A stretch of DNA of 64,000 nt from a virus: IMG/VR virus record IMGVR_UViG_3300028584_000072, positions 1 to 64,000 of that record; one strand, 5' to 3'. This document shows, in pieces, positions 3,137 to 48,536 of this stretch. Position 1 is the stretch's first letter. Every line of letters begins with the position of its first letter. The translations under genes were made by a program, and so were the position numbers. A model generated the notes under the pieces. The model was given only the letters and a program-made list of their open reading frames with translations, was not told the DNA's origin and searched no databases.

Positions 3137-3668
3137 TACCCCATTTGAGCCTTGGTTGTGGTATCCAGATATTTGGCCTACTAAATCTAAGTTCTACACT
3201 TGGTTACGAGGTTCCTTACGTAAAGCTGTTTGGAATACATCTCCGATAAAGATTACATTTAAGAACCAGAATTGCTTTGCTCCGCCAGATGGGTATGACG
3301 GTAGAGCTAAATCTGGCAACTATTGCGCTTTATCGGGAGAATGGGAAGGTAAAAGTAAGCTTCAGGTTGATCACGTTTTAGGTAACGTACCGTTGAATGA
3401 AGAAGAAGATATACTTGGATTTATCCAGCACTTAATACCGCCACCGAACAGCTTACAATTGGTAAAAGCAGATGCGCATAAAATTAAGAGTTATGCGGAA
3501 AAACAAGGAATAACATTTGAGGAAGCTGTGCTAATTAAAAAATGCATAGAACTTGAAAACGATAAGCGAGATGTAGAGTTCATAAGGAATAGCGGGAAAG
3601 TGCCAGCTAGAAATAAGAAATCTAGGAGACTTCAACTAATTGAAATTATTAAAAGGTCTGAACGATGA
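3129..3668 (+). CDS. hypothetical protein with possible HNH motif
   Basis: LQVDHVLGNVPLNEEE...ADAHKIK gives a DH..N..H spacing. The assignment is weak. Confidence 0.35.
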   Translation: MSNTPFEPWLWYPDIWPTKSKFYTWLRGSLRKAVWNTSPIKITFKNQNCFAPPDGYDGRAKSGNYCALSGEWEGKSKLQVDHVLGNVPLNEEEDILGFIQHLIPPPNSLQLVKADAHKIKSYAEKQGITFEEAVLIKKCIELENDKRDVEFIRNSGKVPARNKKSRRLQLIEIIKRSER

Positions 3669-4234
3669 GAGATAGTATATTTAAGGTAGGCGATGTAGTA
3701 CCTACTAGAAACTGTGGGGATGTGGAGATTACCGAAATAATTGACGGTACAATGGTTTCGGTAATTTTTAAAAATACTGGGTTTGAAAGGGTTTGTCGAA
3801 AAAGCGATCTTTCGTTAGGAAAAGTGAAAGACCTGTTACAGTCAGGAAACTATGGAAGATATGTAGGTGTTGGTAATTACAACAGTACGGAACATACTGT
3901 GGCGTATAATGCATGGTACTACATTTTTGAAAGGGCAGGTGTACACGAGAACTATATCATTACTACTGTCGATGAGACATGGAAAGATTTCCAAGTGTTT
4001 GCCAAATGGTTTTACGAGAATCATGTTGACGGGTTTACTGAGATAGATAAAGATTTATTCGGTACAAATATGTACTCCCCAGACACTTGTGTTCTGTTAA
4101 ACAGGGAACTGAACATGTTAGAAAGAAATATGAGGGCACCATTGAATATCTTGGAAAAAACTAATAAGAACGGGAGTGTATCATACGTATCTAGATTTCT
4201 AGGCAGGTCTAAGTCTTTTTTCACAAGAAAGTGA
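3665..4234 (+). CDS. endonuclease-like/DNA-binding phage protein, paralog of 17814..18464 (apparently frame-broken at its 3' end)
   Basis: Shares W..F..F.KW....DKDL....YSP with 17814..18464. Homology continues in the +1 frame after a T6 run at 4215-4220 (see findings). Confidence 0.5.
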   Translation: MRDSIFKVGDVVPTRNCGDVEITEIIDGTMVSVIFKNTGFERVCRKSDLSLGKVKDLLQSGNYGRYVGVGNYNSTEHTVAYNAWYYIFERAGVHENYIITTVDETWKDFQVFAKWFYENHVDGFTEIDKDLFGTNMYSPDTCVLLNRELNMLERNMRAPLNILEKTNKNGSVSYVSRFLGRSKSFFTRK

Positions 4235-5039: not shown

Positions 5040-6035
5040 ATGTTAGATTGGCAGAGTAAGGCTTTAGAGTTACGTGGTACTATGGGTAGTCGTGCAATCG
5101 GGAAGTTATTAGGTAAAGGTAAGAGCTCGATTAATGATTACTTCAAGCGATATGATTTACAACAACTAGGCGCTACTCAGGGTGTTGGTAAAAGTATTTC
5201 TGAGGAAGCAGCCTTACCTTACTACAGTATTCAGACAACACTAAATGTACCTGAGAATATCACCCATCTGATGATACCAGACACACAATGTAAACCAAAC
5301 ATCGACATGAGCTATTTAGATTGGTTAGGGTTATACCTCGTAGATAAGAAACCAGAGGTAATTGTACATATAGGTGATCATGCTGATATGGAATCATTAT
5401 CAAGTTATGATAAAGGTCAACGTACAGCGGAAGGTAAACGTGTAGTTAAAGATATTGATGCTGCTATCGAAGGTATGAATCGACTACTTAAACCTTTATA
5501 TGAACTTCAGCAACAAGAATTGAAGCAATACGGTGAGGTGCTTTATAAACCTAAAATGTTGATTACATTAGGGAACCATGAAGCAAGGATTAGTAGGCAC
5601 GTAAATGCTAACCCAGAATTACATGGGTTTCTGAGCTATGACAGTCTAAAATACAAAGAAATGGGGTGGGAGGTCTATGACTTCTTGGAGCCTGTCGTGG
5701 TAAACGGGGTTGCTTATGTCCATTATATGGCTAACCCTATGACAGGTAAACCTTATGGTGGCACAGCACTAAATATCCTGAAGAATGTAGGTGAGAGTTT
5801 CTGTATGGGACACAAGCAGTGTTTAGATACCGCTACCCGTTTTCTTCCCTCATCGGGTAAACAACAATGGGCTATCATTGCTGGCGCTTACTACGAACAC
5901 GACGAAGATTACAAAGGCTACCAAGGAAATCATCATTGGCGGGGCATTGTAGTACAACACAATGTCAAGGCTGGTAGCTTCAACCCAATGTTTGTTAGCT
6001 TAGAGTATCTGAAGGAAAGGTATGGGAAGTTATGA
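5040..6035 (+). CDS. calcineurin-like metallophosphoesterase with N-terminal HTH-like segment
   Basis: Motifs IPDTQ, HIGDHADM and LGNHE occur in metallophosphatase order. Confidence 0.65.
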   Translation: MLDWQSKALELRGTMGSRAIGKLLGKGKSSINDYFKRYDLQQLGATQGVGKSISEEAALPYYSIQTTLNVPENITHLMIPDTQCKPNIDMSYLDWLGLYLVDKKPEVIVHIGDHADMESLSSYDKGQRTAEGKRVVKDIDAAIEGMNRLLKPLYELQQQELKQYGEVLYKPKMLITLGNHEARISRHVNANPELHGFLSYDSLKYKEMGWEVYDFLEPVVVNGVAYVHYMANPMTGKPYGGTALNILKNVGESFCMGHKQCLDTATRFLPSSGKQQWAIIAGAYYEHDEDYKGYQGNHHWRGIVVQHNVKAGSFNPMFVSLEYLKERYGKL

Positions 6036-6835
6036 GGGTATTAGTTCATGAAGACTCCTTACTGTACCCACTTGAAAAGGAAATCATAGGTAATACTAGT
6101 CACCCGAAGGCACTTTGTTGTTGCAAAGTGTGTGGAGGCTTATACCTTGCAGATGTCTGGGGATTGAAAAGTGGTGCTATTAAATCTTGTGGTTGTTTAA
6201 GAAAGCTTCTACCTAAGAAAGACATTACAGGAGTAATGACTGATGCAGGTAATAAGGTTGTTGGTTACGTAGGAAATTCCTTTTGGAGGGTACAACATCA
6301 GTGTGGTCATACCAGCGACTTGAGGGCTTCGGCAATCTTCAACAGAACCACAGGACTGTGTAATTCTTGTAGTAAATCGAAAACTTGCGTAGATAGGAAT
6401 ACTTCCCACAAAAGAAGTAGGTCTAAGACATACAAGTGTTGGTTGTTAGTGAGGAGAAGGTGTTATGACCCAACTAACAACAGGTATTCATATTATGGTG
6501 GTAAAGGAATAACAGTCTGTGATAGATGGTTAAACTCTTTTGAAAACTTCTATGAAGATATGGGCGAATGCCCTGAAGGGATGAGCATTGACAGGATTGA
6601 TAATAGTTTAAATTACTCGCTGGATAATTGTAAATGGTCTACCCAGATAGAACAAGCGAACAATAAGACCAACAACCTATTGTTCACAGATGGTCATACT
6701 ACTTGGAGTCTTCGTCGCTGGTGTGAGCTATTTGGTAAAGATTATAAACATATCTGGTATTTATATAGAACTTGTGGTATAAGTATAGATGTATTATTTG
6801 ACGGAAAGCTATCAGCAGTGAAAGCTTACAATTAA
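6032..6835 (+). CDS. HNH-family (homing) endonuclease-like protein
   Basis: Cys clusters (CCCKVCGG, SCGC, CNSCSK). Core is RCYDPTNNRYSYYGGKGITVCDRW..FENFYEDMGECPEGMSIDRIDNSLNYSLDNCKWST. Paralog of 2198..3136. Confidence 0.65.
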   Translation: MRVLVHEDSLLYPLEKEIIGNTSHPKALCCCKVCGGLYLADVWGLKSGAIKSCGCLRKLLPKKDITGVMTDAGNKVVGYVGNSFWRVQHQCGHTSDLRASAIFNRTTGLCNSCSKSKTCVDRNTSHKRSRSKTYKCWLLVRRRCYDPTNNRYSYYGGKGITVCDRWLNSFENFYEDMGECPEGMSIDRIDNSLNYSLDNCKWSTQIEQANNKTNNLLFTDGHTTWSLRRWCELFGKDYKHIWYLYRTCGISIDVLFDGKLSAVKAYN

Positions 6836-31090: not shown

Positions 31091-31710
31091 TATTCACCTG
31101 CCTTAGACTTGAGGGCATTGTCAAGTGCATCCGTATCCCCTGTAGTGCCAAATATAAATGTATCTTTAACAATGGTTCTCTCTGTTGAAGATTTACCACC
31201 ATTACTTGTAGAGCTACTGGTATCTTTTTTACCATCGACAACTCTTGTAGCTGATAACAGATTAACAGTCTCAGTGGTTGCTTTGCGTATCTGCACTATA
31301 GATATATCGAAGTATAAACTGTTAGATGACTCTGGATTGGCGGGGATAGATAGACTCTCCACGACACAATCATAATACGTGTCATACTTACTAACTAACG
31401 TGAAGGTTAGTCGTTCATCACGAAGTTTACGGAGGAAAGAGTACGCTTGAGGAATACGATCTGCTGTACGAGTGAGGGTGTCAGCTTGGAAATCATTAAT
31501 ACCATATTGACCAAAGATACCAGATACAGTGAAACGGTTATTTTTTAGCTGTACATGATCGGAGAATGACACGCCAGTTTCAACAGGATGTTCTGTAACG
31601 CTGTTGGAGAAGTCATGAGAAATACTCACAGTGCAATCTGCAAAGTATTTCTCACCAGCAATCTCACTCACGCCAGCTTTGAATTTATTAGCGACGATGA
31701 ATGTAATCAT
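31090..31710 (-). CDS. tail module protein (206 aa), function unknown
   Basis: ORF track. ATGA/TAATG-type coupling to the tape-measure exon 2 stop. Confidence 0.5.
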   Translation of the reverse strand: MITFIVANKFKAGVSEIAGEKYFADCTVSISHDFSNSVTEHPVETGVSFSDHVQLKNNRFTVSGIFGQYGINDFQADTLTRTADRIPQAYSFLRKLRDERLTFTLVSKYDTYYDCVVESLSIPANPESSNSLYFDISIVQIRKATTETVNLLSATRVVDGKKDTSSSTSNGGKSSTERTIVKDTFIFGTTGDTDALDNALKSKAGE

Positions 31711-32649
31711 TATTGACTTGTCTCCATTTGGTTGACGGCGTTGGTCGAGAGGGTTCTGTTGTCAACTGCGGCTGAAATAACTTTACTGAATTCACCGTCC
31801 TTGACTGTAACCGTTACATTAACTGGCTCTGTTGAACTAAAAGGATTCACTGCTCTAACAGCACGTTGCCATTGGTTCCCGAAAGAGCTAAAACCCTCCC
31901 TGTTGAAACCTACTTTACCCCCTAGAGTATCCGCACCAGTACCTAACAGAGAATCCTTACCTTTTAAAAAACCGTAGGTATCTTCAATTGCTAAAGGTAT
32001 TAATGCGAACCTTGCCATGTTCCGCATTAAGGCAATGAGTGTTACGTTAGCGCCACCTATGACATTTTGCAGTAGCTTGAATTTAGTAGCCAATATTGCT
32101 AATGTCCCCCCAGCACCTATGACAGCCCACATCTTACCACCAAGACCGAATGTGTCGGCACCTAATGCCCCCCATAACGTAGAGATGACATCTGTCAATA
32201 TTTCAAGAGGCGTTAATGCCAGTTTAATAGCACCTGTAAGTATGGAAATGGCCCCTTTAAATATACCGCCTAAAGCTTTAGCTAAAGGTTTTAATGTTTC
32301 GATGGAATCTGTAAATTTCTCAAACATATAAGAAAGTCCAGAGTCCATTCCACCCTTGAACATTTCCACTTTACCTTCGTCAAGTACGTTGAAGAATCGA
32401 GTCATCTCTGCTCTTGTTTTACCAAGCACAGCGCCCAGTGCCCCACCTTCCCTCGACATCCTTTTCATTTCTTCAGCAAACTTAGGTAAAACACCCTTCG
32501 ATTTAACTGAACCAGATTCTACGGCTTTAAAGAATGCGGTAATATCATCACCGTACCCTGCTGCACGAGACATAGCATCTACGCTGCCCCCTAGTGCCTC
32601 ACCCAGCTGCCCCGTAAGCTCCTCTTTATAGATTTGCCCTTTAGATGCC
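31710..32649 (-). CDS. tape measure protein, exon 2
   Basis: It starts (G)GCA TCT AAA GGG = ..ASKGQIYKEELTGQLGEALGG. Joined to exon 1 it gives ALQQ-M-ASKGQIYKEEL. C-terminal Gly-rich TM-like segments are typical of TMPs. Confidence 0.7.
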
Positions 32650-33547
32650 CATTTGTTCAAACTGAGTCGTTAATTCAGTCCCGCTTTATTTAAGCTGCTA
32701 TATGTTTCCATATAAGTTCAGACTATATCTTCACCCTCCAGTTAAGGAGGGGTTCCACGTTTCGAGCCACTTGGCTCTACTCCCCTTGGGGATAGTCGTT
32801 GGGAAGAATATCAGGGTATAACACAGTAATGTGTTTCCAAGTGGCACGATACCGAATTTTAGAAACTTGCTTCTGAGTGAGTCCCATACGTTTAGCTATG
32901 GATGCACTCGATGGTGGCTTCTTGCCAACATGTTCTACGAAATATATTCTACAAACTTCGTGAACTTGTTCTTCGGTCATACTGCACATACCATGATTAG
33001 TTCCAAACAAGATAAGGACTAAACCATCTCGCCTAGCATCTTCTAGGTTAGATAAGTTGGTTCCGTATTCAAGATTGGTATAATGGTTGTTTGTTTTATC
33101 GTTATCTTTGTGTTTAACGACAACAGTTTCACCATTGTAATCTTCGGTAGTGTAATCTAAGTGTGCCGGAAGTTCTACAAAACAGTCAGCTACCGCTCTG
33201 TGGACTTTCCTTGTAAACCTCTTACCTTTTAAACAGTATTGGAAATAAACGTAACCATCTTTGTTTATCCTGCAATACCATCTTGTCATTGTTTTTGAAT
33301 TAAATAGCTTACCGCATTGAGATACCAGAATCTTTTGGTATTCAGGCCAAGGTTTTAATTCACCCTCATAATCGTTCTGCTGATTGCCCATTTCTCCCTC
33401 CTATACTAAAAGGAAAGATCATATCACCAACTTTTCAAACTGTCAAGCTTATCGTCACCGATTACTTTGTAGTGTGGGATCTTTAGGATGTTCCAGCATA
33501 TAATGGAATTTTTCACTACACATTACTGTATAGGCAGACAACATTCT
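32650..33547 (-). mobile_element. group I intron (898 nt) with internal HNH homing-endonuclease ORF
   Basis: P1 pairs exon GCAGAU with intron GUCUGC (U:G at the splice site). P10 pairs AUGUU with the 3' exon GGCAU. The terminal base is G. It has GAAGAUAUAGUC (32721-32732), a J8/7-P7-like core, and a GAAA-capped hairpin. The junction restores the frame (1995 nt). Confidence 0.7.
32777..33391 (-). CDS. intron-encoded HNH homing endonuclease (HNH_3 type)
   Basis: KDGYVYFQ...KVHRAVADCF...VKHKDNDKTNNHYTNLEYGT. It has its own RBS GGAGGGAG inside the intron. Confidence 0.75.
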   Translation of the reverse strand: MGNQQNDYEGELKPWPEYQKILVSQCGKLFNSKTMTRWYCRINKDGYVYFQYCLKGKRFTRKVHRAVADCFVELPAHLDYTTEDYNGETVVVKHKDNDKTNNHYTNLEYGTNLSNLEDARRDGLVLILFGTNHGMCSMTEEQVHEVCRIYFVEHVGKKPPSSASIAKRMGLTQKQVSKIRYRATWKHITVLYPDILPNDYPQGE

Positions 33548-34602
33548 ATCTGCTGCAACGCACGAAACGCACGTTGATAATCTTCTTTTGATGCGCCAAG
33601 AACTGTAGCATATTCACTTACACCAGTAAACAAACTACGTTGCTGGTCTTTAGTTAGTGATGTCTTAGTTGCTATACTAAACTTAGTAAATTCTTTAGTC
33701 GCTGAACGTAAGTCAACACCTAACCTCATTGCTTCATCACGAATGAAACTCATGTGTTCAGCCACACCCGCATCATCTTTAGCAAACACTCTAGCTGATG
33801 CAGATAAACCCTCAAATTCCATCGCAGTGGTGGAAATATTCTGCACAACACTAAACGCCGTATAAGCAGCAGTTAATTGTACAAGCTCATTACGTAATGA
33901 TCTAAATGATACAGCATTAGCTCTAGTTACTCTGTCAGAGTTAACCATTTCATTCTTTGTTTCATTTAGGCGTTGTCTAAATGTTTCAAGAGCGCGAGGT
34001 TGGGTAGGGTCAATAACTCTTAATGCTTCTTCCTTAGCAGCACCAAGGCGACTTTGCATTTCATTACGTTCCGCTTGACCTATACTTCTTTGAGTGAAGT
34101 ATTGTCTCAGTTGACTCTCTTTAATCTTGTAAAAGTTATCAACACCAGCTTCAAAGTCTGTTCTATTTCTCTTAGCTCTAGCAGTTTGTTTAGCTTGCTG
34201 TGCATCATGCTTATCTTTTTGTTTAATAAGATTAGCGGCTGCTCTGTCCTCATCCCTTAACATCTGAGCAAACATTGTTCTACTTGCTGGACTAGATAAA
34301 GCTGTTGCTGGAAATAAATGAGCAAGTCTACCGCTCATGTCAGCATTTTTATTTGAAGTTCTTACATTACCACTATACTTCTGTGTAGCTGCTGCTACTT
34401 TCTTTTCAGCATTTACTGTAGCATTAGCTACTTTATTTATTTGTTGAACGACAGCATTAACTTTAATGGACTTATCCATACCTGTCATCTGTCGTTTGAT
34501 TGAAGTAAGTTTAGACTGGAATAACGCTAAGTTGTCCCATGATTTCTTATCAATGTTAAATCGGACTTTCCCGACTACACTACCGACTACGTTTTCTGCC
34601 AC
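33548..34602 (-). CDS. tape measure protein, exon 1
   Basis: GTG start, long alpha-helical sequence, ending ..QRAFRALQQ(M). The in-frame run-on into the intron stops after 8 codons. Confidence 0.7.
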
Positions 34603-43505: not shown

Positions 43506-44566
43506 TTACATATCAGCTAAAGCTATAGCTTTAACACTTATAGGAGGCGCAGAGAATGCGCCGAGTTTTGGGACTGTGTATATCTTAGCTGTGTTAAGGT
43601 AGTTGAATGCCGTGCCAACCGCATCGACGAAATCATCGTGTCTAGTACGTGTTGATTTGGTAACACCATCGAAGTTTTCACATTCTCTGTAGAAGTAATC
43701 TAGTGTCTTTCTATCCCAACCAGACTCAACTATAAATACCAAACCATTCTGTACTGCTGTAAAGAAAGGTTCTGATTTCTTAATCTTACTGGCTGTAGAA
43801 CTAGAAGTATCTTTCTTAGGGATTAAACCTTCGGACATGATATACTTTGAGAGGTATTCAAATGCTGCTGCACCCCCCGCACCGTTATCTTTAGGGATTA
43901 CAATGTGAACGTCACTACCATCACGTTTACCTTGAGCGACTATTGTAGCATCTCTGTCACCAGTACGCTTACGGTAATATTCACCATTAAGTAAGTAGTA
44001 ATACCCGTCTTTAGATTTGGCAACCAGAACACTTGCGGTGGCGTCACAGCCTACCGTAGCCGGAGTATCGTCAGCAGTTGATGCTAAGTCATACCCGCGA
44101 GCTAACATGCAGCCCATAGGCATCTGGGATGCTTTCTTTAGGTCTTCTCGTTTGAAGAAAATTCCAGTATCATCGGTAGAAGCCCAACAGCCCATGAGAA
44201 GCTGTTTACGTTTACCTTCTGGCATACTGTCTAGTTTCTTGCGATACGAACTATCGAGCGTATCTAGAGCCTCGTTGTCGTCCAATGTTGCAGGTATATA
44301 AGTGTAAGTCTCAGGGTCTTTACCCCAAGTATCTCTTAACTCTTGTTCATCCCAAGACGTGTACAAGACACCTTCAACGACAACGAAGTATCTAGTTTTA
44401 CCAGATAACTCTTTACGAGGAAAATCTTCATCATCTAAGTAGGGTTTAACCCATTCATAAATAAAACTGTTTGGTGAAGGGTTAAGAGTGCATCGAATTG
44501 ATTTGGGAATACCAGACATTGAACGGTTACGAGAACGTATTACGTCAAATTGGTATTGACTTCTAA
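43506..44566 (-). CDS. terL: terminase large subunit, exon 3 (nuclease domain)
   Basis: It begins (F)RSQYQFDVIRSRNRS...IRCTLNPSPNSFIYEWV. The C-terminal RNaseH-like nuclease region has GYDLAST and HDDFVDA. Confidence 0.75.
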
Positions 44567-44854
44567 CATTGTATTTACTACCACTCGCTACTGTGATAGC
44601 CATATGGCTTTAACTTTCGCTAAAGATTAGGTCATATCTTCACTTCTAAGAAGTGCCTTCCGTTTCGCTGCGCTTGCAGCTACGAGCATTGCTCTGACCG
44701 TCGAACGTTCTCCTATTCGGAGCTTCGCTGCTGATTGCCTAATACACTTAATTTTCAAACATTCACGCTCAGGTTTATTTCATCCTCACGTTGTAGTTTA
44801 AGTGTCTTAAAGGGTTTCCAGCAATTAAAAAGGTTTACCCTCAGCATAGAGTCT
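44567..44854 (-). mobile_element. ORF-less group I intron 2 in terL (288 nt)
   Basis: P1 pairs exon CUCAGU with intron GCUGAG (U:G). P10 pairs UCUA with exon-3 UAGA. The terminal base is G (44567). It has a P8-like hairpin plus GAAGAUAUGACC (44630-44641). Its core is homologous to intron 1. Confidence 0.65.
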
Positions 44855-45170
44855 ACTGAGCTTCTTCAAAAAACGCACAGTTAATTTCTGTACCGTACCA
44901 AGCATCTGCATCTTTATCTGTGCTAAGATATGAAAACGTAGTCCTTGCACCAGATGGAAATGTGATTGTTTTTTGTTGTTCGTTTACCTTAGCTTGACCT
45001 AAGAATCTACCTGTAGTATCTACGAGGTAAGGCATGTACATACGTTTTGCATCAACCCAAAGACCTTTATCAATCTCTGTAGATGTGGTACGATAGAACA
45101 CGCTAAAGTAAAGAGGATCATGAATACCTAGGAGATTTACGCAGAGCGCACCATAGGTCTTACCACCACC
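44855..45170 (-). CDS. terL: terminase large subunit, exon 2 (Walker A lysine to Walker B)
   Basis: GGGKTYGALCVNLL...ITFPSGARTTFSYL...INCAFFEEAQ. An in-frame TAG immediately precedes GGT at 45170. Confidence 0.75.
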
Positions 45171-45411
45171 CTATTAATTTTACAGTCGCTACACTGTTTC
45201 CACCATTTCTGGCGTAATTGGATCATATCTTCCATCATAAGATGGCTTCCTGTTTGGAGTAACCAATAGCTTGTTACCCTACGTCCGTACACTCATCGGG
45301 ACTGATCTCTACACGTTCTCTATCAAGAGCTTCGCTCGGTATTGCCTTCAACTAAATGGTAAGGTTTCACCGAATTAAGGAAGTTGATTAAGGTGGAACC
45401 AGTTATGGTTT
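45171..45411 (-). mobile_element. ORF-less group I intron 1 in terL (241 nt)
   Basis: P1 pairs exon GGUGGAGCU with intron GGUUCCACC (9 bp, U:G at the splice site). The terminal base is G (45171). It has a P8-like hairpin plus GGAAGAUAUGAUC (45221-45233). Confidence 0.65.
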
Positions 45412-45534
45412 AGCTCCACCGCCAAAGAACACAATACTTTCTTTGGCATTAGCAAACTCTAGCTGCTTAGGTTGTAATTTGATTTCAGGTATATTTCGGA
45501 TAGGGGTCTTTCTGATATTATGTTGTTTTGTCAT
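45412..45534 (-). CDS. terL: terminase large subunit, exon 1
   Basis: The RBS GAAGGA and the ATG 45534 both lie inside the 3' end of the HNH ORF. Sequence is MTKQHNIRKTPIRNIPEIKLQPKQLEFANAKESIVFFGGGA. Joined to exon 2 it gives the Walker A sequence FFGGGAGGGKT. Confidence 0.7.
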
Positions 45535-46231
45535 ATATTTCCTTCATAAACTTATCGAATACATCTCTCCGTCTGCTACCATTAACTATCCTACTAATTT
45601 GTGCAGCAGATAACTTATATTCTTCACATAAAGTTTTCTGAGGTATATTATTACAATGAGCTTTGATTAAAAGCTCTAAGATTAAATCATCATCGTGTTT
45701 GGCTGTTGTACGCTGTTCAAATTTATCTGATTTTACGATTCCAGTAATTTCAGAAAATCTACGTCCAGTTACAATCTCACTAATTGCATCAGCCCTGCAC
45801 TCTAAGTTATATTTTTCTTTAAGATCTTTATGTGAAGCACCATTTTTGTAGTCTGATACAACAGACAACATTTCTTCTTTAGTTAAAGAAGATAGTGTTC
45901 TTTTCCCAATACCATTAACGTAATAATGTACAGTATTGTGAGTGTAAGTACACCACTCTAAATTAGAGTAATGGTTATTACTTACGTTCAAATCTTTATG
46001 ATTTATAATTGGTAGATTATTTTGGTTATCTAGAAATGCTGAAGCGACTAAACGATGTACTCGTAGGTCGTGTCTAACTTTATTCTCAGTAAGATTTACA
46101 GCCAGATACCCATCTTTATCTAATTTAGGTTTCAGCATTTTTCCAGATTTGTAATAGCTATAAATATCTCCATATTCAGAGATTTTATACATAGGGAAAT
46201 CTGGGATAACTCGCCACTCAATATTGTTCAT
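45518..46231 (-). CDS. free-standing HNH homing endonuclease (I-HmuI-like: NUMOD4 + HNH_3 + HTH repeats)
   Basis: WRVIPDFPMYKISEYGDIYS, DGYLAVNL...RVHRLVASAF...INHKDLNVSNNHYSNLEWCT. The 3' end overlaps the terL start by 17 nt. Confidence 0.8.
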   Translation of the reverse strand: MNNIEWRVIPDFPMYKISEYGDIYSYYKSGKMLKPKLDKDGYLAVNLTENKVRHDLRVHRLVASAFLDNQNNLPIINHKDLNVSNNHYSNLEWCTYTHNTVHYYVNGIGKRTLSSLTKEEMLSVVSDYKNGASHKDLKEKYNLECRADAISEIVTGRRFSEITGIVKSDKFEQRTTAKHDDDLILELLIKAHCNNIPQKTLCEEYKLSAAQISRIVNGSRRRDVFDKFMKEIYDKTT

Positions 46232-46727
46232 TTAAAATCCTATTAATCAGTTACCCTCGCCTATTGGCGCAGAGTTAATCGCTTACTCTTAAGCAAAGAT
46301 AACTGTTAATGGAATCTTTGAGACTATTAATTCTTCAGACCTAAGTCTACGGAAACGCCAATTCCCGCTTCTAAGATATTACAACAAAACCCTCTATATT
46401 GCAAGAGGGCTTTATCTTCCTCACATTTCAAATCGTAATGCTTGAATATGTTTTGGATTAGTAAAACGAAACTCAACATGATGGCAACATCAGAGGTTGA
46501 GTGTTCTTATAACTTATTTCAACTTCACCGAATTAAACAATCTTACCAGCATTTCGCTTGACCTTGTTACAGGTGCTGTATGGAACCTTAGTGATACCTG
46601 AAGCCTATTATCTTCAGTGGGCTAAGGGACGGTTCCTCATTTTTGTTAACACCGATATTCACTCCTAGTGGAGTCTAGCGAATGCTAAATTAATCCCCCA
46701 ACCACTCCTGTGTGAAGGGGAAATTCT
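46232..46727 (-). ncRNA. 496-nt ORF-free, hairpin-dense segment (intron-like or leader RNA?)
   Basis: No ORF longer than 12 codons. Several extended hairpins are present. It shares a 13-nt motif UUAAUUCGGUGAA with terL intron 1 and has GAGGAAGAUAAAGCCC resembling the introns' J8/7 motif. Confidence 0.3.
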
Positions 46728-48251: not shown

Positions 48252-48329
48252 TGGTAGCCCCTGAAGGATTTGAACCTATCTACCTTTCCCTTATGAGGGG
48301 ACTGCTCATACCAAATGAGCTTAGAGGCT
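48252..48329 (-). tRNA. tRNA-Met-like (anticodon CAU; could be Ile2/fMet), CCA encoded
   Basis: Acceptor AGCCUCU/AGGGGCU, D arm GCUC..GAGC, anticodon loop CUCAUAA, T arm GA(U)AGG-UUCAAAU-CCUUC with one bulged U, then ACCA. Confidence 0.6.
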
Positions 48330-48415: not shown

Positions 48416-48536
48416 AGTGTTTGGTAGGATTTGAACCTACGAACTTATGCTTCTGTGGCTTCTGGTAGTCGCCGTGCTTAATAAGGAGTTGAACCTTTAC
48501 CAGAAGTAGCTTGCTAAACCGTCCAGCTTCAAACAC
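48416..48536 (-). ncRNA. aberrant 121-nt tRNA-like element
   Basis: Perfect acceptor GUGUUUG/CAAACAC, D arm (GCU-GGACGGUUU-AGC) and T arm GUAGG-UUCAAAU-CCUAC. About 44 extra nt form a 9-bp helix (CUUCUGGUA/UACCAGAAG) that encloses a second T-arm-like hairpin AAGG-UUCAACU-CCUU. Confidence 0.4.

Follow-up and report, generated by a model that had tools for sequence, protein, structure and literature searches.

The window is a stretch of virus DNA of 64,000 nucleotides (nt), positions 1-64,000 of IMG/VR record IMGVR_UViG_3300028584_000072. In it we examined a locus, with all genes on the minus strand, that contains the terminase gene terL, interrupted by two predicted group I introns, and a predicted homing endonuclease gene. 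The endonuclease open reading frame (ORF) lies upstream of terL exon 1 and outside both introns. About 100 related loci, cited here by L numbers where a number is needed, were compared with this locus. The features that we consider are the following, with the evidence for each in brackets.

46390..46409, minus strand: GC-rich hairpin with a U-run, terminator-like, immediately upstream of the endonuclease cassette (sequence; relatives)
46378..45548, minus strand: endonuclease cassette, an insertion/deletion unit of about 831 nt (blastn borders, junction sequences)
46231..45518, minus strand: predicted free-standing homing endonuclease ORF, 237 amino acids (aa) (ORF list; Pfam, PHROG, PDB and fold matches)
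45545-45540, minus strand: terL Shine-Dalgarno sequence GAAGGA, 5 nt before the terL ATG and inside the endonuclease ORF
45534..45412, minus strand: terL exon 1, 123 nt, 41 codons, ending IVFFGGGA (collinearity with L094, alignment with PT11-V22 TerL)
45411..45171, minus strand: predicted group I intron 1, 241 nt, ORF-less, splitting the Walker A codons (Rfam, L094, ICP1 homology)
45170..44855, minus strand: terL exon 2, 316 nt, GGGKTYGAL...AFFEEAQ plus the first base of the next codon (L094, PT11-V22)
44854..44567, minus strand: predicted group I intron 2, 288 nt, ORF-less, just after Walker B (FFEEAQ-F) (Rfam, L094)
44566..43506, minus strand: terL exon 3, 1061 nt, the nuclease or RNaseH-like half with Terminase_6C (Pfam, L094)

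The interrupted terL gene and the endonuclease gene

Exon and intron borders were set by blastn of the window against the intron-less IMG/VR contig L094, which encodes an uninterrupted TerL 93% identical to that of the window. The alignment is gapless and places window positions 45547-45412 on L094 3487-3623, 45170-44854 on 3624-3940, and 44555 onward on 3951 onward. The spliced window terL ORF is 499 codons long with no internal stop, and 464 positions match L094 TerL without gaps. The first junction, FFGGGA/GGGKT, falls within Walker A, and the second, FFEEAQ-F-RSQ, falls just past Walker B in agreement with FEECQFRSW of PT11-V22. At the intron 1 site the intron-less P-loop DNA of L094 reads gaaagtatagtattcttcggaggtggagct/ggtggcggtaaaacctacggtgcgctttgc and the spliced-junction DNA of the window gaaagtattgtgttctttggcggtggagct/ggtggtggtaagacctatggtgcgctctgc. 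The terL pieces give Terminase_6N and Terminase_6C matches in Pfam, and a Mu-type portal gene is located next downstream.

The Rfam family Intron_gpI (RF00028) matches intron 1 at 45452-45199 (37 bits, E 3.6e-7) and intron 2 at 44893-44608 (67.5 bits, above the gathering score). The intron ends given by Rfam were wrong and were corrected with L094: P1 had been assigned to a hairpin in the exon, and intron 2 stopped about 40 nt before its 3' end. With these borders P1 is GGUGGAGCU/GGUUCCACC in intron 1 and CUCAGU/GCUGAG in intron 2, and both introns have a U.G pair at the 5' splice site and G as the last base. An earlier reading of this DNA (the first-pass annotation) had described both introns as ORF-less, and we found only short spurious ORFs of 43 and 51 aa within or across them. 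Two other details had to be revised. Exon 3, which had been started at the ATG at 44603, begins at 44566 by the L094 alignment; intron 2, which had been placed in Walker B coding DNA, interrupts the codon that follows FFEEAQ after its first nt, a position just past Walker B. The terL intron of ICP1, for which splicing was shown by RNA sequencing and reverse transcription PCR (Barth, Dunham & Seed 2023, PMC10448857), is a homologue of intron 1 (nhmmer E 7e-30). When 13 members of the intron 1 family are aligned, compensatory changes are seen in 23 of 39 consensus pairs, and P1 co-varies with the exon. These comparisons indicate that both terL interruptions are group I introns with a conserved core and in-frame exon joining, and we infer that both are spliced.

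The ORF upstream of terL is predicted to encode a protein 237 aa long that matches NUMOD4 in Pfam (E 4.9e-9; 36.7 bits, cut-off 23.4). Its HNH_3 match is weak (E 1.8e-3, 18.3 bits, under the 24.8 cut-off), and HNH_3 is matched in 21 of 21 aligned relatives; PHROG 59, 'HNH endonuclease', matches with E 1.5e-42. Residues 5-107 have a sequence match to I-HmuI (PDB 1u3e; E 5e-14), and 1u3e is also the sole significant PDB fold match of the AlphaFold model (E 7e-8, 169 aligned columns, 27% identity), which has a mean predicted local distance difference test score of 84. The NUMOD4 region is modelled with strands at residues 6-57 and aligns to I-HmuI residues 2-104. Residues H78, N85/N86 and N99 are invariant in 21 relatives, with H78 and N99 aligning with the HNH motif of I-HmuI; N77, likewise invariant, aligns with I-HmuI D74. 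The C-terminal 120 residues are modelled as two three-helix modules (approximately 118-154 and 181-217) that in fold comparison weakly resemble bipartite helix-turn-helix (HTH) domains. No Pfam HTH family matches the window protein at E<=0.01, HTH_3 being present only below threshold (E 0.057), and HTH_28, HTH_3 and HTH_7 match weakly in relatives. BLASTP between the two C-terminal halves shows no significant similarity, leaving an HTH repeat unsupported at the sequence level, and NUMOD1/IENR1 has no match in the endonuclease. The domains proposed in the first-pass annotation, NUMOD4, HNH_3 and an HTH repeat, therefore stand for NUMOD4 and for HNH, with HNH_3 itself sub-threshold, and in part for the HTH repeat, as two modelled modules with no IENR1. 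Among intact copies the ratio of nonsynonymous to synonymous substitution (dN/dS) is 0.05-0.14, with synonymous divergence saturated in most pairs. Taken together, the sequence and model comparisons indicate an intact, free-standing gene for an I-HmuI-type homing endonuclease (NUMOD4-HNH-HTH) that is under purifying selection.

The gene ends 17 nt inside terL exon 1, as had been noted before (TAA at 45520-45518, terL ATG at 45534-45532), and the ribosome-binding site of terL, GAAGGA at 45545-45540, is indeed among its last codons. In L096 and L097, which have no endonuclease gene, a terL leader of about 54 nt stands in place of the 831 nt of the window. This conserved 54-nt leader is present in L094 and L096 and is replaced by the cassette in the window. 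The hairpin region at window 46458-46379 is 97.5% identical in L096, which is without the endonuclease gene, and similarity of the window to gene-less relatives restarts 13 nt before the terL ATG. The last 10 or so endonuclease codons align with the terL ribosome-binding region of these relatives. A second presence/absence, of 827 nt, separates L176, which has the gene, from L096/L097, which do not, with flanks that are 96-97% identical. In the cultured Barba phages of Rheinheimera and in L143 the nuclease half is deleted, and what is left of the gene is its final 57 codons, 60% identical. These junctions indicate that the cassette took the place of the ancestral terL leader when it was inserted between the terminator hairpin and the start codon of terL, and that the terL ribosome-binding site is now carried by the endonuclease's own last codons. 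We also considered whether the gene is inside a third intron. This was rejected because relatives without the gene show a simple insertion before the terL start; in addition, there was no Rfam match at E<=10 for an intron around the endonuclease gene or in the 496-nt gap upstream of it.

The cassette is preceded by a non-coding stretch of about 350 nt (46379-46727, minus strand) that lies between orf151 and the cassette and ends in the terminator-like hairpin. Its folding is far better than that of shuffled versions (z = -3.8; none of 100 shuffles did as well). Part of it is conserved in L004, L096, L097 and L176, no Rfam family matches it, and a structured RNA and a 3' untranslated region are both possible.

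An HNH gene directly upstream of terL might also encode a packaging accessory like HK97 gp74 that aids genome-end cleavage by the terminase, and readings that invoke packaging and homing need not exclude each other (Barth et al., PMC10448857). The architecture argues against this role, as the protein is NUMOD4 + HNH_3 + HTH, approximately 237 aa long, and is I-HmuI-like by both sequence and fold. The gene is also dispensable. It is absent from L094 and L096/97, in which TerL is 93% and 84% identical, it is truncated in the cultured Barba phages, and an unrelated T5orf172 nuclease substitutes for it in other relatives. On these two grounds we rejected an HK97-type packaging role and regard it as essentially excluded.

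Association of the endonuclease gene with the P-loop intron

A megablast search of the 4.4-kilobase locus region against the INPHARED phage collection gave no match, and relatives were reached via proteins. Relatives of the endonuclease gene were gathered by protein search and with a specific degenerate DNA pattern in IMG/VR, and the full-length ones found by protein search are 37-97% identical. In all contigs long enough to be judged (L004, L005, L006, L007, L009, L011, L013, L169, L176, L177, L181, L183 and L184) the endonuclease gene is followed by an ORF of 32-51 aa, a gap of approximately 200-310 nt, the rest of terL, and the portal gene. With a profile made from the gap sequences, the same intron is detected in each of the 13 contigs. 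The endonuclease gene overlaps terL by 17-20 nt in the window, L004 and L005, and the two are 1-49 nt apart in L006, L007 and L009-L013. Overall, the P-loop intron was found in 14 of the 15 lineages carrying this HNH family, and these 14 cover three or more terL types that are about 30% identical in amino-acid sequence.

Association was also examined in a terL-based IMG/VR sample of 80 loci that were picked by terL similarity. Where the P-loop intron is present, 9 loci have an upstream endonuclease gene and 7 do not; where it is absent, 5 have one and 59 do not. Upstream endonuclease genes of either family are enriched at intron-bearing terL (Fisher p 6e-5 raw and about 0.02 after rough de-duplication, both computed without phylogenetic correction). 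The second family is a T5orf172/MUG113-type gene with zinc-finger domains, which fills the same slot with the P-loop intron present in L095, L099, L150/151, L153 and L161/162. The L095 gene has Pfam zinc-finger domains only and was grouped by its phmmer similarity to L099. The slot is without any endonuclease gene in L094, L096/97 and L108. We conclude that the endonuclease family is associated with the P-loop intron strongly, but not absolutely.

The P-loop intron is at position 45411 in the window, 6836 in L005, 6839 in L004, 6855 in L013, 1993 in both L095 and L096, 2368 in L099 and 2727 in L174. Relative to the P-loop Lys codon its insertion site varies as follows.

5 codons upstream: L095, L096/97, L013, L143 and L150
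4 codons upstream: ICP1
3 codons upstream: the window and Barba
2 codons upstream: type B terL
1 codon upstream: L005, L099 and Pseudoalteromonas phage J2-1 (L003, MF370964)

At these sites the guide sequence of the intron matches the local exon (GCCGCC/GGCGGU, GCCACG/CGUGGU, and GCCUCG/CGAGGU in L011), and the introns of the window and L005 are 91% identical yet inserted 6 nt apart. The five positions are within about 15 nt of each other, so an intron at any of them would break one recognition site of 25-35 base pairs (bp).

Other arrangements of terL introns were also observed. The terL of L177 has two copies of the intron 1 family (2211-2415 and 2678-2901), and that of L176 has three introns, at 5405-5647, 5943-6110 and 6220-6508, that correspond to the P-loop, a site near residue 132 and the site of window intron 2. 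In J2-1, terL is split by a P-loop intron of the same family (632-852, nhmmer E 3e-18) and has a further gap of approximately 900 nt at about 1400-2060; GenBank annotates only the last piece as terL. In Rheinheimera phage Barba31A (L001, MK719750) gp102 (3633-3779) is terL exon 1 and is followed by an unannotated 236-nt group I intron (3756-3991), as also in L098. The GenBank terL of Barba31A (gp103) begins at VFVRTT, with the 57-codon HNH remnant just upstream (L001 3430-4061 region). Because exon 1 and the intron were overlooked, truncated terL genes are annotated in Barba phages and in many metagenomic relatives.

Intron 2 has a different distribution. It is absent from L094, L005, L095, L096/97 and every type B and type C locus examined. 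It occurs at the same site in L176, where it is 92% identical and the HNH gene is present, and in L099, where it is 87% identical and the slot holds a T5orf172-type gene and no HNH gene. Intron 2 was rejected as the partner of the endonuclease since it is missing from most endonuclease-positive loci and present in the HNH-less L099. Two other loci have introns with ORFs in the Walker B region. L164 (1746-2583) has a 218-aa I-HmuI-like HNH gene in a Walker B-region intron of the intron 1 family, and L108 (2355-3158) has a Walker B-region intron with a 215-aa Cys/His-rich HNH-like ORF, assigned to its family by eye only.

A free-standing endonuclease gene beside ORF-less introns of the same gene is the published layout of collaborative homing (PMC10448857), as the first-pass annotation had recognized. 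Intron 1 begins 123 nt into terL, and the endonuclease gene ends 17 nt inside exon 1. Collaborative (trans) homing at the Walker A site is in our judgment the best single model, which we adopt tentatively and with a target predicted from the position of the intron. According to this model, the enzyme would nick or cut uninterrupted Walker A coding DNA in the terL of relatives that infect the same cell, about 125 bp downstream of the endonuclease gene. The site in its own genome, split by group I intron 1, would be protected. Repair templated by the genome that carries the endonuclease gene would transfer the intron in every case and the cassette in many. Where terL alleles are very different, repair would resolve only in conserved flanks and the whole of terL would be replaced. 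Intron 2 would be a bystander.

Several observations weigh against this model. Intron 1 occurs without an endonuclease gene in L096/L097 and L108, and with a remnant only in Barba and L143. Conversely, a 218-aa HNH gene of the same architecture (32-36% identity) overlaps the start of an intron-less terL in L100, and T5orf172-like genes are upstream of intron-less terL in L113, L120 and L170. Across eight endonuclease-positive loci, endonuclease similarity tracks the portal (Spearman 0.44, p 0.018) and not the intron (-0.18) or the terL exons (0.10 and -0.16), whereas intron similarity tracks the terL exons (approximately 0.50). This decoupling suggests that the endonuclease gene and the intron have not moved as one unit recently. 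Endonucleases that are 85-97% identical are found beside type A and type B terL, which differ in P-loop DNA and intron position. These phages are generally rich in introns and endonucleases, a second case being that in the tape-measure gene of the window, and co-occurrence could be a lineage effect. The close intron-less alleles sampled are L094 and L120 only, giving little power within clades to detect a nested pattern. I-HmuI is said to cut intron-containing alleles too. The intron 2 site, which had been proposed as one of two possible targets, shows no association with the endonuclease, and this narrows the proposal to the Walker A site. Inheritance of the endonuclease independently of the introns, named beforehand as evidence against homing, is seen in part (L096/L097, L108, the remnants in Barba and L143, and the decoupled similarity).

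A close rival, which we consider possible and rank second, is that the slot upstream of terL is an endonuclease hot spot with turnover, where the enzyme cuts the terL leader or 5' region or elsewhere independently of the intron. Co-occurrence with intron 1 would then reflect shared history or lineage enrichment of mobile elements, and an older, intron-encoded gene may have given way to the free-standing one. This turnover alternative was proposed by Barth et al. (PMC10448857). It is consistent with the varied contents of the slot, which holds NUMOD4-HNH genes (the window and 13 lineages), T5orf172/MUG113 types, a remnant or nothing, with its being filled upstream of the four intron-less terL genes of L100, L113, L120 and L170, and with the decoupled similarity patterns of endonuclease and intron. 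The conserved 54-nt leader replaced by the cassette could itself be the target, and in L164 an intron at the Walker B site, itself related, encloses a related HNH gene. A hot spot accounts less well for an association with the P-loop intron that holds in 14 of 15 lineages, even where endonuclease identity is as low as 37%, and in at least three terL types, or for the enrichment of two unrelated endonuclease families at intron-bearing terL.

Exchange of terL alleles

Comparisons between pairs of genomes suggest how terL itself has changed. The window and L004 are otherwise 82-85% identical, and their endonucleases and portals are 96% and 91% identical, but their TerL proteins, of different types and both from intron-bearing genes, are 36% identical, with no nucleotide similarity across 45525-43586. 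In this pair synonymous divergence decreases toward the junction, from 0.68 for the DUF5681 gene through 0.30 for orf151 to 0.14 for the endonuclease gene, and is 0.66 for the portal gene beyond terL; the low value of the endonuclease gene is consistent with a mobile cassette. Barba31A and L143 (IMGVR_UViG_2974647707_000001) have flanks that are 98.7-99.2% identical around terL genes of type A and type C, respectively, with about 30% amino-acid identity. This swap extends from 12 nt after the terL start to approximately 50 nt before the stop (L001 3645-5294), and each allele has its own P-loop intron. A whole-terL swap that begins at the end of the endonuclease gene is observed in two independent pairs, which is consistent with collaborative homing. 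The window and L005 differ in another way, being 80% identical from the left end of the cassette through exon 2 and 71% downstream, with almost no similarity upstream of the cassette apart from one 67-nt match; this block favors a link between the cassette and intron 1. We conclude from these alignments that terL alleles are exchanged as whole genes, each with its own intron, and that the left border of exchange coincides with the end of the endonuclease gene. The swap border fits what Barth et al. (PMC10448857) propose in general, namely that nuclease genes are located at such borders. Alternatively, the left border may simply mark where homology ends.

Repeated whole-terL replacement (Barba vs L143; window vs L004) is expected if terL is attacked, and this is also a point in favor of a competition weapon, in which a domesticated nuclease is kept for excluding co-infecting relatives by nicking terL and its own spread is secondary. 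Such a role is consistent with purifying selection over the long term (dN/dS 0.05-0.14) and with vertical inheritance alongside the backbone. I-HmuI and I-HmuII cause marker exclusion in SPO1 and SP82, and an intron HNH endonuclease was reportedly found in 2024 to act in jumbo phage competition. The absence of the cassette from close relatives and its decay in Barba are instead as expected for a dispensable selfish element, and the weapon reading overlaps both collaborative homing and the hot spot and excludes neither. We consider it improbable as the primary explanation. A broader proposal, which we regard as unlikely although somewhat less so, is that the P-loop intron is a portable immunity element against terL-targeting nucleases. 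Its five staggered sites, the guide sequence re-fitted at each, its occurrence in at least three terL types with only about 30% identity and its place downstream of endonuclease genes from two unrelated families would agree with this. Attack on Walker A DNA would select any insertion that breaks the recognition site and, where terL alleles share no homology, would drive replacement of the whole gene, as between the otherwise 99% identical Barba31A and L143. If true, terL would be a hot spot of nuclease-driven diversification. In a limited literature search we found no description of staggered guide-compensated intron positions, of two endonuclease families alternating in one slot, or of near-clean terL swaps.

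Two other features of the window were observed away from terL. A second HNH_3 endonuclease ORF of 204 aa (33391..32777, minus strand), 27-37% identical to the terL-adjacent family, lies between apparent tape-measure pieces at 33523..34602 and 31710..32660, which were named by eye from their sequence. A group I intron match at 32963-32698 (Rfam 38.4 bits, E 6.9e-8) overlaps the 3' end of this ORF. The region 32698-33522 has the appearance of a typical intron that encodes its own endonuclease, and such a case has been reported in the tape-measure gene of ICP1. Near a tRNA-Met gene (48252-48329) there is a tRNA-like sequence at 48416-48536 on the minus strand (Rfam tRNA, 30.2 bits). Its acceptor, D and T arms are present, 66 nt stand in place of the 17-nt anticodon arm, and it is 85% conserved in L010. 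ARAGORN makes no tRNA call at 48416-48536, which may be an interrupted or degenerate tRNA.

Comparison with known systems

Collaborative homing is a proposed route of mobile intron formation that rests on very few cases, and for terL it has so far been inferred only from the gene layout of ICP1. To this the locus described here adds an unrelated, second endonuclease family that occupies the same slot, beside introns of the same family. Among its relatives are natural genomes, 93-97% identical, that either have or lack the endonuclease gene and either have or lack the intron. These are ready substrates and controls, and the cultured Barba phages, with a decayed gene, and the 99%-identical L143, with a swapped terL, provide a further natural comparison. 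Cutting of Walker A DNA by the nuclease, protection by the intron, and whole-terL exchange caused by nucleases can all be tested with such material.

Several genes and enzymes already described resemble the window gene in part. I-HmuI, from the SPO1 DNA polymerase intron (1U3E), has the NUMOD4-like N-terminal sheet, the HNH His and Asn residues and a C-terminal helical DNA-binding region. It is intron-encoded and 174 aa long, whereas the window protein is free-standing and 237 aa long with two C-terminal helical modules, has N77 in place of D74, and is 27% identical in the fold-search alignment. HK97 gp74-type genes are HNH genes immediately upstream of the terminase genes; the window gene is of another architecture and is dispensable and polymorphic among close relatives. 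At T4 nrdB, in the case of mobE and I-TevIII (PMC2790892), a free-standing HNH endonuclease mobilizes a neighboring intron that is without a working endonuclease. This is a different gene in a different phage group, and that intron keeps a defunct endonuclease ORF where the window introns have none. For F-CphI and the psbA intron of cyanophage S-PM2, and for the ORF-less DNA polymerase introns of T3/T7-like phages, which have free-standing HNH genes next to them, the target of the enzyme is the intron insertion site according to PMC3984707 and PMC10448857 (Zeng et al. 2009 and Bonocora & Shub 2009, as cited there). In those accounts the host genes are psbA and DNA polymerase, F-CphI is Endo VII-like, and cleavage of the insertion site was demonstrated, whereas in the window it is predicted.

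The closest likeness is to the terL locus of ICP1, the layout of which was called collaborative homing by Barth, Dunham & Seed 2023 (PMC10448857). Both loci have a homologous TerL (34% identity), a short N-terminal exon and a homologous intron in the P-loop codons (FYGGA/AGGGKS in ICP1), and in ICP1 the endonuclease gene gp130/tcgB is also directly upstream and overlaps the start of exon 1. The ICP1 enzyme is a CapR + T5orf172 endonuclease unrelated to the NUMOD4 + HNH protein of the window. ICP1 has one terL intron, located 4 codons upstream of the Lys codon, rather than two with the first located 3 codons upstream, and its splicing was shown experimentally, whereas that of the window introns is predicted. 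The window locus is a further example of a published layout with a different nuclease family and not a new kind of system.

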